Source: a virus
Taxonomy: Duplodnaviria; Caudoviricetes
DNA length: 54,358 bases
Direction: 5' to 3' (one strand)
IMG/VR virus record: IMGVR_UViG_3300023174_000214
Coordinates: 1-54,358 of that record
Positions 47,022-49,384 of the stretch are shown in pieces. The notes beneath the pieces were generated by a model that saw only the letters and a program-made list of their open reading frames with translations, ran no database searches and was not told where the DNA came from. Both the position numbers and the translations under genes were made by a program. The first letter of the stretch is position 1; each line of letters begins with the position of its first letter.

Positions 47022-47258
47022 ATGAATAACGAACAACAACAGATTATTGATGAGGTGTATGAGAACTATGAATCACGACAAATCAATATGTATGTTCCAA
47101 TATGGTCACAAGAAGAGTTCATCAACAAATGTAAAACCGATAATGAGTTTGCTAAGAAGTGGGGTGAACTCGGAAAAATTTATGGGCATGGTTGGCGTAA
47201 CTGGAATGGTAAATCTGATGACGAGTTATATGAAGATTATTTGAAAAAAGTTAAATAG
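47022..47258 (+). CDS. thymidylate-synthase-derived mini-ORF (N-terminal/central segment)
   Basis: [31 protein letters not shown] resembles the ThyA (W/Y)G.LGP.YG.QWR.W motif. Confidence 0.6.
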   Translation: [78 protein letters not shown]

Positions 47259-47314
47259 TTTTGGTCTTTTTCCATTTATTACCATATTTATATATAGTAA
47301 ACAATGGAAATAAT

Positions 47315-48007
47315 ATGGACTATAAAAAAATACACGACAATATAATTGATAGAGCAAAAAATAGGGTATTAGAAGGGTATGTTGAAACACACCACATTAT
47401 ACCAAAATGTATGAACGGAACCAATGAACCAAATAATTTAGTGAAATTAACTGCAAGAGAACATTTTTTAATTCATTAGTTATTGCATGAAATATATCCT
47501 AGTAACACCGATTTGAGATATGCATTCTGGTCAATGTGTCGTAGTTCAGGTAATCAAACGAGATATAAACCATCATCAAGGGTTTATGAATATGCCAAAC
47601 AACAAATGATAGAAGTGTGGTTAAAATTCAAACCATCGGAAAATCAAATAAGTTCTATTAAAGAAAGTTTAACAGGTACTAAATGGTATCATAAACCCGA
47701 TGGAAGAAATTTAAGAGTTTTTCCAAATGACCCGAAGATTGTTCAGGAAGGTTGGTTATTGGGTAGGTTTAATGGAAAATTAATATCAGATAAGGCAAAT
47801 AAAGATAGAGAAAAAAAATATGCGGGTAAAAAGATGCCATCAACATCAAACAAAAGATGTTCAATAGATGGTGTTGAATTTGAATCGGCCAAAGCTGCTG
47901 CGGATTTTCTTAATATGAATGAGTTTTCTATTAGGTGGATATTACAGGGTAGAGGTCGTTCACAAAAGCATAAAGAAAAATATAAAAATTGGTATTATAT
48001 AAATTAA
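47315..48007 (+). pseudogene. HNH homing endonuclease interrupted by in-frame TAG (47477-47479)
   Basis: ETHHIIPKCMNGTNEPNNLVKLTAREHFLIH*LLHEIYP continues in the same frame; C-terminal SIDGVEFESAKAAA NUMOD1-like HTH. Confidence 0.8.
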
Positions 48008-48063
48008 TTTTGAGTGTTAGAATTATAAAATGTATTAAATTAATACAAACCTAAAAAATAAGG

Positions 48064-48094
48064 TTGTTAAGTTAAAATATTTTATGTATTTTTG
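48064..48094 (+). promoter_or_regulatory. canonical Bacteroidota sigma-A promoter (TTG-N20-TAnnTTTG)
   Basis: TTG 48064-48066, TATTTTTG 48087-48094. Confidence 0.55.
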
Positions 48095-48122
48095 TATTCT
48101 AAACAAATAAAACTTAAATAAA

Positions 48123-48371
48123 ATGAAACAATTAGAACTTGAAATCGGCGTAGAACAACCCATATTTCAGATGGTAATAAATAATCCCAATAAAGTATTA
48201 ATACTACCAAAAGAGTTTTATGATAAATTTATAAAATATATGATACAAGAAGAAATGTATGAGCATATTCCAAAGTTAGAAGGGCTCAAAGATAAAACCA
48301 TTGATAAAACATTTGAACAATTAATGGAAGAAAGTTACAACAGTCCTCAAAACGGAAACATATTTTTATAA
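48123..48371 (+). CDS. hypothetical protein
   Basis: Leader TAAAACTTAAATAAAATG shared exactly with 48400. Confidence 0.55.
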   Translation: MKQLELEIGVEQPIFQMVINNPNKVLILPKEFYDKFIKYMIQEEMYEHIPKLEGLKDKTIDKTFEQLMEESYNSPQNGNIFL

Positions 48372-48399
48372 ATCAGAAACTATCTAAAACTTAAATAAA

Positions 48400-48702
48400 A
48401 TGGAAAACAAACTAATTGCAAAAGGTATAACAACAGACCTTAACTCGTACACATTTAATATTATTAAAGATGAACCTATTATAGTAATAACTGAAGATGG
48501 GTTTAAATACAAAGGAGAACTTATTGAAGATGGTGGTGAAATCTATAAACTATTAAAAGAATTTCTTCAAAAATCACAAATTACTAAATCAAATGAAAGT
48601 AAACAAAGTGATGAATGTTTATCTTTTATTTCTCTTACTAAAACAACATCACCAACCATCTGTTCAATATGTGGTAAAGAAAAATCTTCCCATAAATTTT
48701 AA
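48400..48702 (+). CDS. hypothetical protein
   Basis: GFKYKGELIEDGGEIY module and C-terminal CSICGKEK..H. Confidence 0.55.
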   Translation: MENKLIAKGITTDLNSYTFNIIKDEPIIVITEDGFKYKGELIEDGGEIYKLLKEFLQKSQITKSNESKQSDECLSFISLTKTTSPTICSICGKEKSSHKF

Positions 48703-48728
48703 AATTTAAAACTTAAAAACAGAAAATT

Positions 48729-48974
48729 ATGAACCGAGAAAGTAAAAATGGAAAATTAATTGAAGAAATTATTACACAATATGTTGACGAAAACATATTT
48801 GAACCCACCGATGAATTTAGGGAATCATTACAGGAAAATCTTAATTCAATACTAAAATTTCAAACAATAGTTACCAACATAGAAAATAAAAACGATTTTA
48901 TTGTTGGGACTGTTATGTTTAAAAATGAGGATGAGATTAATAGCGTTATGGATTTTACAATAATTAAAAACTAA
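48729..48974 (+). CDS. hypothetical protein
   Basis: A-rich leader. Confidence 0.5.
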   Translation: MNRESKNGKLIEEIITQYVDENIFEPTDEFRESLQENLNSILKFQTIVTNIENKNDFIVGTVMFKNEDEINSVMDFTIIKN

Positions 48975-48988
48975 AAACGATTAATTAT

Positions 48989-49082
48989 AGTCAGGTGGCG
49001 GAATTGGTAGACGCTTTTGGATTCTCTGTCCGATACCTTTGTTAAGGCAAAAAGCTTGCAGGTTCAAATCCTGCCCTGACTG
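48989..49082 (+). tRNA. atypical tRNA / tRNA-like RNA (Leu-type D arm, apparent CTC anticodon, extended variable region)
   Basis: Acceptor AGTCAGG/CCTGACT, D arm GCG-GAATTGGTAGA-CGC, T arm GCAGG-TTCAAAT-CCTGC; anticodon arm TTGGA-TTCTCTG-TCCGA is non-canonical; no encoded CCA. Confidence 0.6.
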
Positions 49083-49096
49083 CAAAATTAAAAATT

Positions 49097-49384
49097 ATGA
49101 GTAAAACACTAACAAAAGAAGAGTTTTTAGAAAAGTTAAAAACAGATAGCGAGTTTAATTCTAAATACGGAAGAAAGCATATTACAGAAGGAAAAATGGT
49201 ACTTCCACCCTGTCATTATGGATTTCAAGTTTATACGAGAGAGTTGACTTGGTACGAAAGACATGAATTAGCAGAGACTAAGTATCGAATAGATGATGTA
49301 GACGATGTATTAGATAAGGAGGATATCCCAACCCGACTAATCACAATAACATACAACGATAAAAAAATAGAAAGTTATAAATAA
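49097..49384 (+). CDS. thymidylate-synthase-derived mini-ORF retaining the catalytic PCH motif
   Basis: EEFLEKLKTDSEF..KYG then MVLPPCHYGFQVYTREL..IPTR. Confidence 0.65.
   Translation: MSKTLTKEEFLEKLKTDSEFNSKYGRKHITEGKMVLPPCHYGFQVYTRELTWYERHELAETKYRIDDVDDVLDKEDIPTRLITITYNDKKIESYK

Follow-up and report, generated by a model that had tools for sequence, protein, structure and literature searches.

Thymidylate synthase genes are recurrent targets of homing: T4 td carries a group I intron with I-TevI, Bacillus thyA carries an intron with I-BmoI, and phage thymidylate synthase genes are invaded by GIY-YIG and HNH endonucleases that target conserved active-site codons. Cassette gene conversion is known from the silent pilS copies and the expressed pilE, and from vls cassettes, while T4-type phages show modular shuffling of small open reading frames (ORFs) at conserved regulatory junctions (PeSL cassettes). 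Free-standing homing-endonuclease genes (HEGs) also split genes, as mobE does nrdA in Aeromonas phage Aeh1, mobA the topoisomerase genes of T4 and seg gene 43 of phage 25; the mobE, mobA and seg insertions of T4-type phages appear as transposition-like moves to new sites (PMC2988022). Here, we analyse a 54,358-base IMG/VR virus record (IMGVR_UViG_3300023174_000214; the whole stretch is called the window below; estimated completeness 31%, G+C 31.6%), in which two short ORFs with segments of the thymidylate synthase ThyA, ORF1 (47022-47258, 78 residues) and ORF2 (49097-49384, 95 residues), have between them, in this order, an HNH gene, three small ORFs and a tRNA-like gene.

The locus is a mosaic with traceable sources and a mapped crossover zone; the catalytic core of ThyA is missing from it, and its HNH gene is interrupted by a nonsense codon. 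The sources are of two kinds: small core-less relatives of ThyA, which we call minis, and HEG cassettes that split thyA into adjacent pieces at sites numbered here 0, 1 and 2. We consider it probable that ORF1 and ORF2 are the two ends of one recombinant locus, made from a mini and HEG cassettes, rather than independently evolved ThyA mini-genes.

ThyA segments in ORF1 and ORF2

An earlier description made from the letters of this DNA alone (the sequence-only reading) had reported two frames with ThyA segments, and both are present where and as it wrote them. ORF2 carries MVLPPCHYGFQVYTREL...IPTR, EEF..K.KTD.EF..K(W/Y)G is common to the two, each has its own leader and stop, and together they bracket the HNH gene and the tRNA-like RNA, with the three small ORFs in addition. 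Matches to profiles and to DNA show that the relatedness to ThyA is genuine: ORF1 matches PF00303 with E 1.4e-4 (21.6 bits, profile positions 75-107) and ORF2 with E 0.047 (13.3 bits, positions 138-155), PHROG 160 ‘thymidylate synthase’ is matched by both (7.1e-5 for ORF1, 7.4e-4 for ORF2), and their DNA has 82-87% identity with the thyA (423 residues) of the Flavobacterium phages vB_FspM_immuto and 84-90% with pieces of thyA from IMG/VR contigs. The ThyA alignment that the sequence-only reading had named as its check thus exists, although in Pfam both ORFs lie under the PF00303 gathering cut-off of 24.3 bits. ORF2 residues 38-40 are P-C-H, the catalytic-Cys motif of ThyA.

That reading had also stated that the N-terminal core, the RR region and the QRS.D..PFN region are missing and that neither ORF can be an enzyme, and alignment to two Immutovirus ThyAs bears it out: ..DRTGTGT.., ..FPLLTTKK.., ..WFLRGDTN.., ..DSRR.. 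and ..NQRS.D..LG.PFNIASY.. occur neither in ORF1 and ORF2 nor elsewhere in the window. The best six-frame PF00303 match, of 17.1 bits at 47124-47222, is the only one in the 54 kb, and the window has no PF02511 (thyX) match. By score cut-off, and with most of the defining segments gone, among them most of those that bind substrate and folate, ORF1 and ORF2 are not members of the ThyA family; the locus cannot make thymidylate, and neither product is a thymidylate synthase.

A mosaic of mini and cassette

The mosaic was mapped by blastn of 45900-50300 against 161 related loci (Table 1). On the left, 47005-47069 is a mini 5' junction with many matches per array, and 47025-47164 has 88% nucleotide identity to the mini of locus L091. 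From 47106 to 48007/48011 the DNA is 82-87% identical to the tail of an N-terminal thyA piece followed by an HNH gene in 11 loci (named here are L084, L085, L087/L077, L094/L015, L016, L035, L086 and L088); where ORFs were mapped, this arm ends the N-terminal piece of a split thyA in L084, L086, L087, L088 and L094, and a 65-residue middle piece in L085. Mini-like and cassette-like matches overlap over 47106-47164. Since C37 of ORF1 is mini-type (C in 66 of 83 minis vs I in 90 of 92 ThyAs) and A44-K-K is ThyA-type (AKK in 57 of 92 ThyAs vs SEK or SER in 57 of 83 minis), the left crossover lies between codons 37 and 44. Residues 1-40 of ORF1 align as the mini-type MN(N/K)EQQ..(Y)ENY helix and Cys-bearing element, and an active-site-loop relic and a tail stand behind these. 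ORF1 is most likely a by-product.

ORF1 also has the cassette-linked YGHGWRNW, and this type, YG(A/H/Y)GWRNW, is found in 12 of 15 site-1 N-terminal pieces, whereas YGKQWR is found in 82 of 105 other ThyAs. The HNH gene occupies the same thyA position in the 11 loci and the alleles linked to it differ in the YGKQWR codons, indirect signs that it may cleave endonuclease-free alleles and home; the allele difference suggests that its target may overlap those codons.

On the right, 49085-49261 is 84-90% identical in nucleotides to the starts of C-terminal thyA pieces in L004-L007, L010 and L013, the match beginning 12 nucleotides before the ATG. Position 49194 opens a stretch (to 49342) that is 90% identical to the full-length ThyA of L009; ThyA matches from many loci start at 49194-49196, and contigs of ordinary thyA join ORF2 in the part 49196-49237, with ..NAWNVGELD.. 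upstream. Overlapping this, 49238-49389 has its match in the second mini of L149 (3' part, 91% identity), and 49323-49385 is a mini 3' junction matched by dozens of mini ends. ORF2 residues 77-95, IPTRLITITYNDKKIESYK and stop, have the mini C-terminal strand pair IP(T)(K/R)-LITITYNDKTIESYE and the junction motif, here with one mismatch (ATG>ATA). Between the arms, 48012-49056 has no nucleotide match to the related loci.

What the window does not contain is the fusion ..(S)E(K/R)WG-LKIEE-RELS.. of the minis. Cassettes and cargo (47151-49237) occupy that point: ORF1 runs on as ThyA ELGKIYG.., and ORF2 has GRKHITEGKMVLPPCHYGFQVYT before RELT. With the core-less fusion interrupted, the alignments make ORF1 and ORF2 only partial members of the mini family. 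Among 238 loci, no other ORF has the tail behind a core-less N-terminus, and none has PCH or YG..WR ahead of a mini 3' end; only the middle piece of L085 looks like an exception, and it is part of a three-piece thyA.

In relatives, the neighbouring genes flank thyA or mini arrays. Two intact minis in L143 directly follow a gene to which positions 46306-46737 are 94% identical. Right of ORF2 lies a gene at 49396-49638; 49341-49630 is 83% identical to a gene in L016, whose homologue stands directly downstream of thyA in L013 and L137, and 49924-50193 is 91% identical to a gene between minis and thyA in L135. The upstream ORF (46352-46738, 128 residues) has a signal-peptide-like N-terminus, MKKVSLIVVSLLLTVFSYAQ.., and is found immediately upstream of mini arrays in L143 (94% nucleotide identity) and L131 (79%).

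Table 1. Segments of the locus and copies of the gene junction; coordinates are positions in the window.
Feature	Coordinates	Strand	Remarks
Leader/gene junction ATAGAAAGTTATGAA	47012..47026	+	Stop of upstream ORF and start of ORF1; generic small-ORF/mini-array junction
ORF1 codons 1-37: mini-type 5' part, insert 1 and start of EEFINKCK element	47022..47132	+	L091 match; Cys37
Crossover zone, ORF1 codons 38-43, in element common to minis and thyA	47133..47150	+	C37 to the left, A44-K-K to the right
ORF1 codons 44-78 and stop: left arm of site-1 cassette (ThyA stretch and tail)	47151..47258	+	Contiguous with HNH gene
HNH homing-endonuclease gene with nonsense codon	47315..48007	+	Relatives have TGG
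Three small cargo ORFs (48123-48371, 48400-48702, 48729-48974); leader AAACTTAAATAAAATG	48123..48974	+	
tRNA-like gene, 95 nucleotides	48989..49083	+	ARAGORN, Rfam; ends 13 nucleotides before ORF2 start
Leader and ORF2 codons 1-33: site-2 cassette head MSKTLTKEEFLEKLKTDSEFNSKYGRKHITEGK	49085..49195	+	Travelling EEF..KTD..G copy
ORF2 codons 34-47: MVLPPCHYGFQVYT, thyA core with catalytic Cys	49196..49237	+	Carried in with head
ORF2 codons 48-80: insert 2 module RELT...IPTR	49238..49336	+	Common to ThyA and mini alleles
ORF2 codons 81-95 and stop: mini-type 3' end LITITYNDKKIESYK	49337..49384	+	ThyA counterpart AISLMWNQRSVDTF
Junction copies	46267, 47012, 49367, 49644, 49929		
Junction copies, weaker	20886, 24538, 24895, 25345, 28118, 48719		

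thyA in pieces in related phages

Scanning IMG/VR with ORF2 gave at least 572 confirmed relatives among at least 600 pattern matches, of which 80 were used, and scanning with ORF1 gave 72 confirmed among 82 pattern matches. The reading frames around the matches fall into three classes: full-length ThyA, thyA in pieces, and minis. Full-length ThyA in these relatives has 340-440 residues and two hypervariable inserts, one of 10-60 residues between ..DGDAYKNY and the EEF..KTD element (insert 1) and one between ..FQVYTRELS.EER and ..NIPTR-AISLMWNQRS.. (insert 2).

Free-standing HNH or GIY-YIG genes interrupt thyA at three sites in contigs of related freshwater phages. At site 0, which is at insert 1, the N-terminal piece ends ..DGDAY.AYLKECEKLKKDEE and stop, a GIY-YIG gene is next in 5 of 6 loci, and the following piece starts at the native element as M..(H/S).(D/S/N)G.P(L/Y/F)(T/S)(K/Q)EEFI(N/D)KIKT... 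At site 1, the N-terminal piece ends ..YG(A/H/Y).. plus a tail, the next gene is an HNH gene with 82-87% DNA identity to that of the window, and the C-terminal piece starts M.Y.HEDGTPF(S/T)KEEFL.KLKTDKEFN.EFGNKG-IDQI... At site 2, the N-terminal piece ends ..AWN(V/P)ADLP plus VTDYRTDDELY.DYLK.. and stop, and the C-terminal piece starts M..L(T/S)KEEFLEKLKTD..FN.(R/K)YGRK.ITEGK-MVLPPCH..; between them lies a GIY-YIG gene (L011, L013, L018, L101), an HNH gene (L007), other ORFs (L004, L005) or 20 nucleotides (L014). In every split case seen, the pieces are adjacent and jointly cover the whole enzyme. Counted as distinct sequences in 238 loci, there are 91 full-length ThyAs and 14 site-1 and 7 site-2 N-terminal pieces; of the C-terminal pieces, 18 have the Arg-Arg region (site-0 type in 5, site-1 type in 13) and 9 lack it. 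One locus (L085:2564-5866) has a three-piece thyA with a GIY-YIG gene at site 0 and an HNH gene at site 1; its 65-residue middle piece resembles ORF1 from the element onward, and its N-terminal piece holds an N (read as X).

Besides its endonuclease gene, each cassette brings a conserved tail and a head, the latter made of a start codon and another EEF..K.KTD.EF..G. At sites 1 and 2 the heads copy the native element together with the non-ThyA residues H.DG.P(F/Y) that stand before it in site-0 C-terminal pieces. We infer from these copies that cassettes moved from site 0 to the other sites with their flanks, in transposition-like moves such as those of mobE, mobA and seg; the duplicated EEF..K.KTD.EF..G would then be explained, because the cassettes carry the head from site 0.

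In some loci the endonuclease gene has gone and the tail, stop, leader and head are kept: L014 (5450-6606) has the 20-nucleotide gap, and L004 and L005 have unrelated small ORFs. The sequences suggest that the two-piece state of thyA is stable once established. Four one-piece ThyAs (L093, L097, L100, L102) carry the cassette-linked YG(H/A)GWRNW(N/G)G, and two of them, L093 and L102, also keep ..KSDDEFGNKG.. or ..KSNNDVTNKG.. at site 1; by their sequences, all four look re-fused after loss of an HNH cassette. The idea that insert 1 is itself a scar of endonuclease loss at site 0 found no support, as 0 of 70 parsed full-length ThyAs have remnants of a site-0 tail or head.

The mini family

Minis have 89-206 residues (median 127). 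They begin MN(N/K)EQQ.(L/I)(L/I)D.(A/V)YENY, go on through insert 1 to an EEF element ending ..EFSE(K/R)WG, and then run LKIEE-RELS.EER, insert 2, NIPTK-LITITYNDKTIESYE and stop. Of thyA they thus keep the N-terminal helix, insert 1, the EEF..KTD..WG element, one beta-hairpin with insert 2 and a short strand; LKIEE aligns with FQVYT of ThyA, and the blocks that are gone are the N-terminal core, ELGPIYG to PPCHYG, and all that follows the strand aligned with AISLMWNQRSVDTF. The first 154 loci gave 37 distinct minis. After a profile-guided scan (169 of 241 pattern matches confirmed), 238 loci held 94 distinct minis by the strict motif and 14 with a variant core. The strict ..IESYE ending is present in 74 of the 94, and 17 of the other 20 have it with small changes; two minis (one in L211, and one in L229 that stops ..KLITI) do without the usual ending, and L169 has no start codon before the motif.

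The family is large. A profile search of 5.8 billion proteins found at least 7223 clusters (90% identity) at E ≤ 1e-5 among the 8000 candidates scored; the 120 matches listed have 111-226 residues, all with E < 1e-44, no Pfam domain and mostly the name ‘hypothetical’, and 11 of the 11 inspected are minis. An exhaustive hidden Markov model search of 1.84 billion 50%-identity representatives gave 682 matches at E ≤ 1e-3, of which 464 reach E ≤ 1e-10 and 123 reach E ≤ 1e-30; the best 150 have 91-221 residues. A tblastn search of 50,697 records of cultured phages with one mini returned none. A dN/dS of 0.27 (pS 0.51, pN 0.20, over all pairs of 37 minis in a 34-codon anchor block) argues that minis are conserved at the protein level and are under purifying selection.

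An AlphaFold2 model of a mini from a 34-row alignment has a predicted local distance difference test score (pLDDT) of 82.2 and a predicted template-modelling score (pTM) of 0.68, with helices at 3-23, 46-55, 57-63 and 74-83 and strands at 65-71 (before the last helix), 102-108 and 111-116. Foldseek against the PDB matched no known fold at E ≤ 1e-3, the best VIA-align Z was 3.4, and the nearest ESM Atlas structures, viral ThyA clusters with TM scores of 0.49 and 0.45, fall below the bar. The predicted fold is thus a confident one of no known type. For ORF2 the model (pLDDT 69, pTM 0.45) has helices 7-16 and 18-24, strand 43-49, helices 52-61 and 68-71, and strands 80-86 and 89-94. Its order of helix, helix, strand, helix, strand, strand is that of the mini model, and as modelled ORF2 retains the succession of elements that makes up the C-terminal two thirds of the mini. 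On this ground it may still work as a mini, one that contains 14 residues left over from the active-site strand. A predicted complex of ORF1 with ORF2 scored 0.05, the mark being 0.32. No RNA dataset is listed among the 22 runs that hold window sequence.

As to what minis do, our best guess, with about an even chance, is that they are protein-level stand-alone copies of the peripheral and hypervariable ThyA surface, acting as decoys or adaptors. Tandem insert-2 modules (RELS...IPTK-LITVT-RELS...IPTK) occur in the minis L155:478-1035, P0003, P0004 and P0016, and in some full-length ThyAs ..KEQIGR is followed by a third module of similar kind (ELSLEER...IPTRTREP); duplication of the module and its placement at a second site are therefore possible. 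That ELS.EER...IP(T)(K/R) is a general in-frame mobile insert was rejected, since 14 of 14 further matches outside ThyA and known minis proved to be minis.

Mini arrays and exchange with thyA

Minis share the strand of thyA and almost always stand upstream of it, in 72 cases against 1 downstream. Most loci with minis have one (52 loci) or two (33), with three in 5 loci, four in 4 and five in 1. PF00303 is present on 6 of the 10 mini-bearing contigs tested, all ten of which are fragments. Successive genes of an array overlap at ATAGAAAGTTATGAATAA, that is ..IESYE, stop and ATG. The junction ATAGAAAGTTATGAA(TAA) occurs 11 times in the window (at most 2 mismatches) vs 0.92 expected, and also closes unrelated small ORFs; it may serve translational coupling, recombination anchoring, or both.

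Inserts 1 and 2 occur in differing combinations among minis. The insert 2 of a mini matches that of a ThyA (E ≤ 1e-3) in 63 of 83 minis, and in 18 with at least 60% identity over at least 70% of the length, the matching ThyA usually being on another contig. Within a genome, thyA and its own mini have less than 60% identity in insert 2 in 22 of 23 distinct pairs. The exception is L128, in which the mini and its thyA, some 2.2 kb further downstream, share a 117-nucleotide tract, RELS-IPT, at 100% identity, and the flanks have no blastn similarity. This is a recent conversion tract with conserved anchors at its bounds; minis and thyA swap hypervariable inserts. That the arrays form an expressed conversion library for ThyA inserts, with endonucleases supplying the breaks, repair from or into the upstream minis swapping the modules, and minis doubling as decoys or adaptors, is a tentative idea that we rate as rather unlikely. 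If it were true, phages would have an antigenic-variation-like system on a metabolic enzyme, minis would copy a ThyA surface recognised by some host or rival-phage factor, and the window would be a misfire in which cassette arms were copied into a mini.

The HNH gene, the cargo and the tRNA-like gene

The HNH gene has a feature that is absent from the sequence-only reading, an in-frame TAG (47477-47479) at codon 55, which parts a 54-residue catalytic portion from the DNA-binding portion. The motif ..HHIIPK..N..N..H.. is present (Pfam HNH, 18.6 bits vs a cut-off of 21.4), matches to I-TevI/I-HmuI DNA-binding regions are weak, and in this gene the catalytic motif and the DNA-binding region do not share one open frame. 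The relatives of the gene have open frames of 230-237 residues. All four IMG/VR relatives examined have TGG at the stop codon, with 191-201 of 230 residues identical. At position 47478, runs X1 and X2 have A, and G (TGG) is read in X3 (a single contig of depth 2.6) and in X8 (depth 5). By this G and the TGG of the relatives, the HNH gene was knocked out recently in the window's lineage by TGG>TAG. TAG as a sense codon was rejected: ORF1 and the ORF upstream end in TAG, TAG closes 2 of the 71 ORFs of at least 80 residues, the relatives have TGG, and the tRNA-like gene has no CTA anticodon. Megablast of the gene against cultured phages found nothing either.

The three cargo ORFs have no Pfam match above cut-off and no PHROG match. 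For the middle one (48400-48702), only one IMG/VR relative was found, a partial one (L239) from an unrelated region of small ORFs; the two have the first ~60 residues of the 100-residue cargo ORF in common. A second leader type, (CT)AAAACTTAAATAAAATG, stands before the cargo ORFs (48108-48125, 48385-48402, 48700-48731) and recurs in the small-ORF region of L239.

ARAGORN reads the tRNA-like gene as tRNA-Glu(CTC), and RF00005 in Rfam, with acceptor, D and T arms, scores it at 43.6 bits, above the threshold of 29, placing 28 nucleotides where the model has 9. In the minimum-energy fold the anticodon loop has 5 nucleotides vs the canonical 7, and it is in ARAGORN that CTC is read. A relative (L110:1260-1352; 93-95 nucleotides in both) has identical acceptor and T arms and unrelated D, anticodon and variable arms, and ARAGORN calls it ‘tRNA-???’, with no assignable anticodon; both copies lie just upstream of an ORF start. 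Rather than decoding, the gene may serve as a processing signal or as a decoy. We also considered a group I intron or other RNA between the ThyA pieces, and Rfam (E ≤ 1, 46000-50500) found only the tRNA; the ThyA-derived pieces stop, then restart with their own leaders.

Further right, 50717-51080 has a G+C visibly above that of the genome (for example at 50800-50870), lacks a long ORF on the + strand and matches nothing in Rfam at E ≤ 1; a chance snoRNA-like match (E 0.52) lies outside it, at 50539-50626.

Origin of the locus

How might such a mosaic have arisen? From left to right, the 5' part of a mini is joined, inside the element common to minis and thyA, to the left arm of a site-1 HNH cassette; next come about 1 kb of unrelated cargo and the tRNA-like gene, and then the right arm of a site-2 cassette (the head and MVLPPCHYGFQVYT) runs into insert 2 and a mini-type 3' end. 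In the recombinant origin that we favour, the process would be homologous recombination between the diverged repeats of a mini array and a cassette-bearing split thyA, triggered either by endonuclease cuts (ectopic homing with co-conversion) or by a spontaneous unequal crossover that deleted the core. The crossovers would lie on the left in the shared element and on the right in or beyond the RELS..IPTR module, and all catalytic-core segments would have been removed between them. The middle thyA piece would have been replaced by the 1-kb cargo with its different leader type. Arms of two types, site-1 and site-2, call for at least two events or for a donor split twice.

The sequence-only reading had offered two origins, neither of which is right as stated, though each is partly true. 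One was debris of a thyA broken by HNH invasion. The G.LG..YG..WR and PCH stretches do derive from a HEG-split thyA, but not from one thyA broken in place, since the left arm is of site-1 type and the right of site-2 type, the second EEF..KTD..G is a cassette-borne head, and the outer ends of both ORFs are mini-type rather than thyA-type. Plain debris, in which one resident thyA was broken in place by the HNH gene and randomly eroded to inert fragments with no mini involved, is accordingly improbable in our judgement, even though the flanking genes are those that flank thyA or a mini array in relatives, the HNH gene is itself decaying, and homologues of the chimeric forms number 0 in 238 loci. 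Against it, the deletions stop just where intact minis, more than 100 of them, have their boundaries, ORF1 codons 1-37 and the 3' end of ORF2 have 88-91% nucleotide identity with minis as well as mini-specific residues, there are two copies of the element, and random erosion at 31.6% G+C would rarely leave two open frames with leaders. The other origin offered, a new small-protein family built from ThyA segments, was correct in that a large such family, the minis, exists; the minis lack the motifs named as its hallmarks, and the chimeric forms of ORF1 and ORF2 have no homologues (0 others in the 238 loci). The dN/dS that it had proposed to take across homologous mini-ORFs is 0.27 for the minis, as above. 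We also give little chance to selection on the chimeras themselves, whether as a mini in two pieces that reassembles via tail and head or as a ThyA-binding pair. Both frames are intact with leaders, their sequence is identical in the runs of two studies, and the tails and heads kept where the endonuclease has gone (L014, L004, L005) suggest that these peptides serve the pieces; yet the chimeras are unique to the window's lineage, the tail is site-1 type and the head site-2 type, and the core bits, PCH included, have no role outside the enzyme.

That the locus belongs to a working ThyA in many pieces, the rest being encoded in the unsequenced two thirds of the genome, is very improbable: relatives do have ThyA in two or three adjacent pieces and the record is ~31% complete, but elsewhere the split pieces are always adjacent and cover the whole enzyme, a mini-type N-terminus replaces the core in ORF1, a mini-type strand replaces NQRS.D..PFN in ORF2, and the 54 kb hold no further PF00303 match. 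Hardly credible, finally, is a chimera of assembly formed in a mixed metagenome via the anchors repeated in minis and thyA. The anchors are indeed highly repeated, and Logan contigs break and depth jumps at exactly those points. Two runs from different studies (freshwater and lake-water metagenomes, one of which may be the source sample) nonetheless hold 0.95 and 0.94 of the sampled words, and single contig pieces with 0 differences cross both recombination zones, at 47019-47168 (X2) and 49194-49539 (X1); others cover 47139-48049 (X2), 47110-47966 (X1) and 49028-49223 (X1/X2), and a third study (X3) has 48769-49194, also with 0 differences. Because contigs from two studies carry it, the arrangement is real and no artefact of assembly. 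At 47149, other X1 and X8 contigs run on as uninterrupted minis (..SQRWGLKIEE..).

Several points weigh against the recombinant origin all the same. Two orders of events, a mini invaded by cassettes and a split thyA collapsed onto minis, predict the same sequence. No doubly split donor of the kind that would spare a second event was found, and the 1-kb cargo has no traced source. Two studies have both ORFs intact and in identical form, which selection on the chimeras would explain as well. The intact thyA for which the sequence-only reading had advised a search is absent from the 54-kb window (PF00303) and may lie elsewhere, in a genome of which the record is only ~31%. The ORF2 model is moderately confident only, with the loop at residues 27-40 below pLDDT 50. 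On balance, the locus is probably an idiosyncratic, lineage-specific, decaying recombinant.

Comparison with known systems

Taken by itself the locus is a one-off of modest interest, and its value lies in what its analysis exposed. Thymidylate synthase emerges as an enzyme whose gene is repeatedly found in pieces in freshwater phages, interrupted at three sites by endonuclease genes of different families whose tail and head travel with them. In the literature searched, at the level of listings and abstracts, we found no description of a split phage thyA of this kind or of minis; new to that literature are a large core-less ThyA-derived family with no Pfam match, and direct sequence evidence of insert exchange between minis and thyA. 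The system offers a tractable case of how selfish endonucleases reshape an essential gene and spawn small proteins, and raises the question of why a phage metabolic enzyme carries hypervariable surface modules.

The nearest parallel is Aeh1 nrdA-mobE: there as here, a free-standing endonuclease gene (HNH or GIY-YIG for thyA, at three sites) splits a nucleotide-metabolism gene into separately translated ORFs. The split gene of the window differs in being a core-less derivative and not an enzyme, and the thyA cassettes differ from the described case in carrying conserved tail and head peptides, of which the head repeats a segment of ThyA. As in td and thyA homing, a thymidylate synthase gene is invaded by GIY-YIG or HNH endonuclease genes, and here the cassette-linked alleles differ in the YGKQWR codons; unlike td with I-TevI and thyA with I-BmoI, there is no intron (Rfam, 46000-50500), and the pieces have their own stops, leaders and starts. 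The mini arrays resemble pilS/pilE and vls in having partial, divergent copies upstream of a full gene, variable segments between conserved anchors, and exchange between the two (117 nucleotides in L128), and are unlike them in that minis are intact, translatable ORFs that appear to be under purifying selection and the variable gene is a phage metabolic enzyme. As with the PeSL cassettes, a conserved junction recurs between the small ORFs of a plastic region and marks mosaic boundaries; here that junction is a stop/start overlap (..IESYE, stop / ATG) and not a promoter stem-loop.

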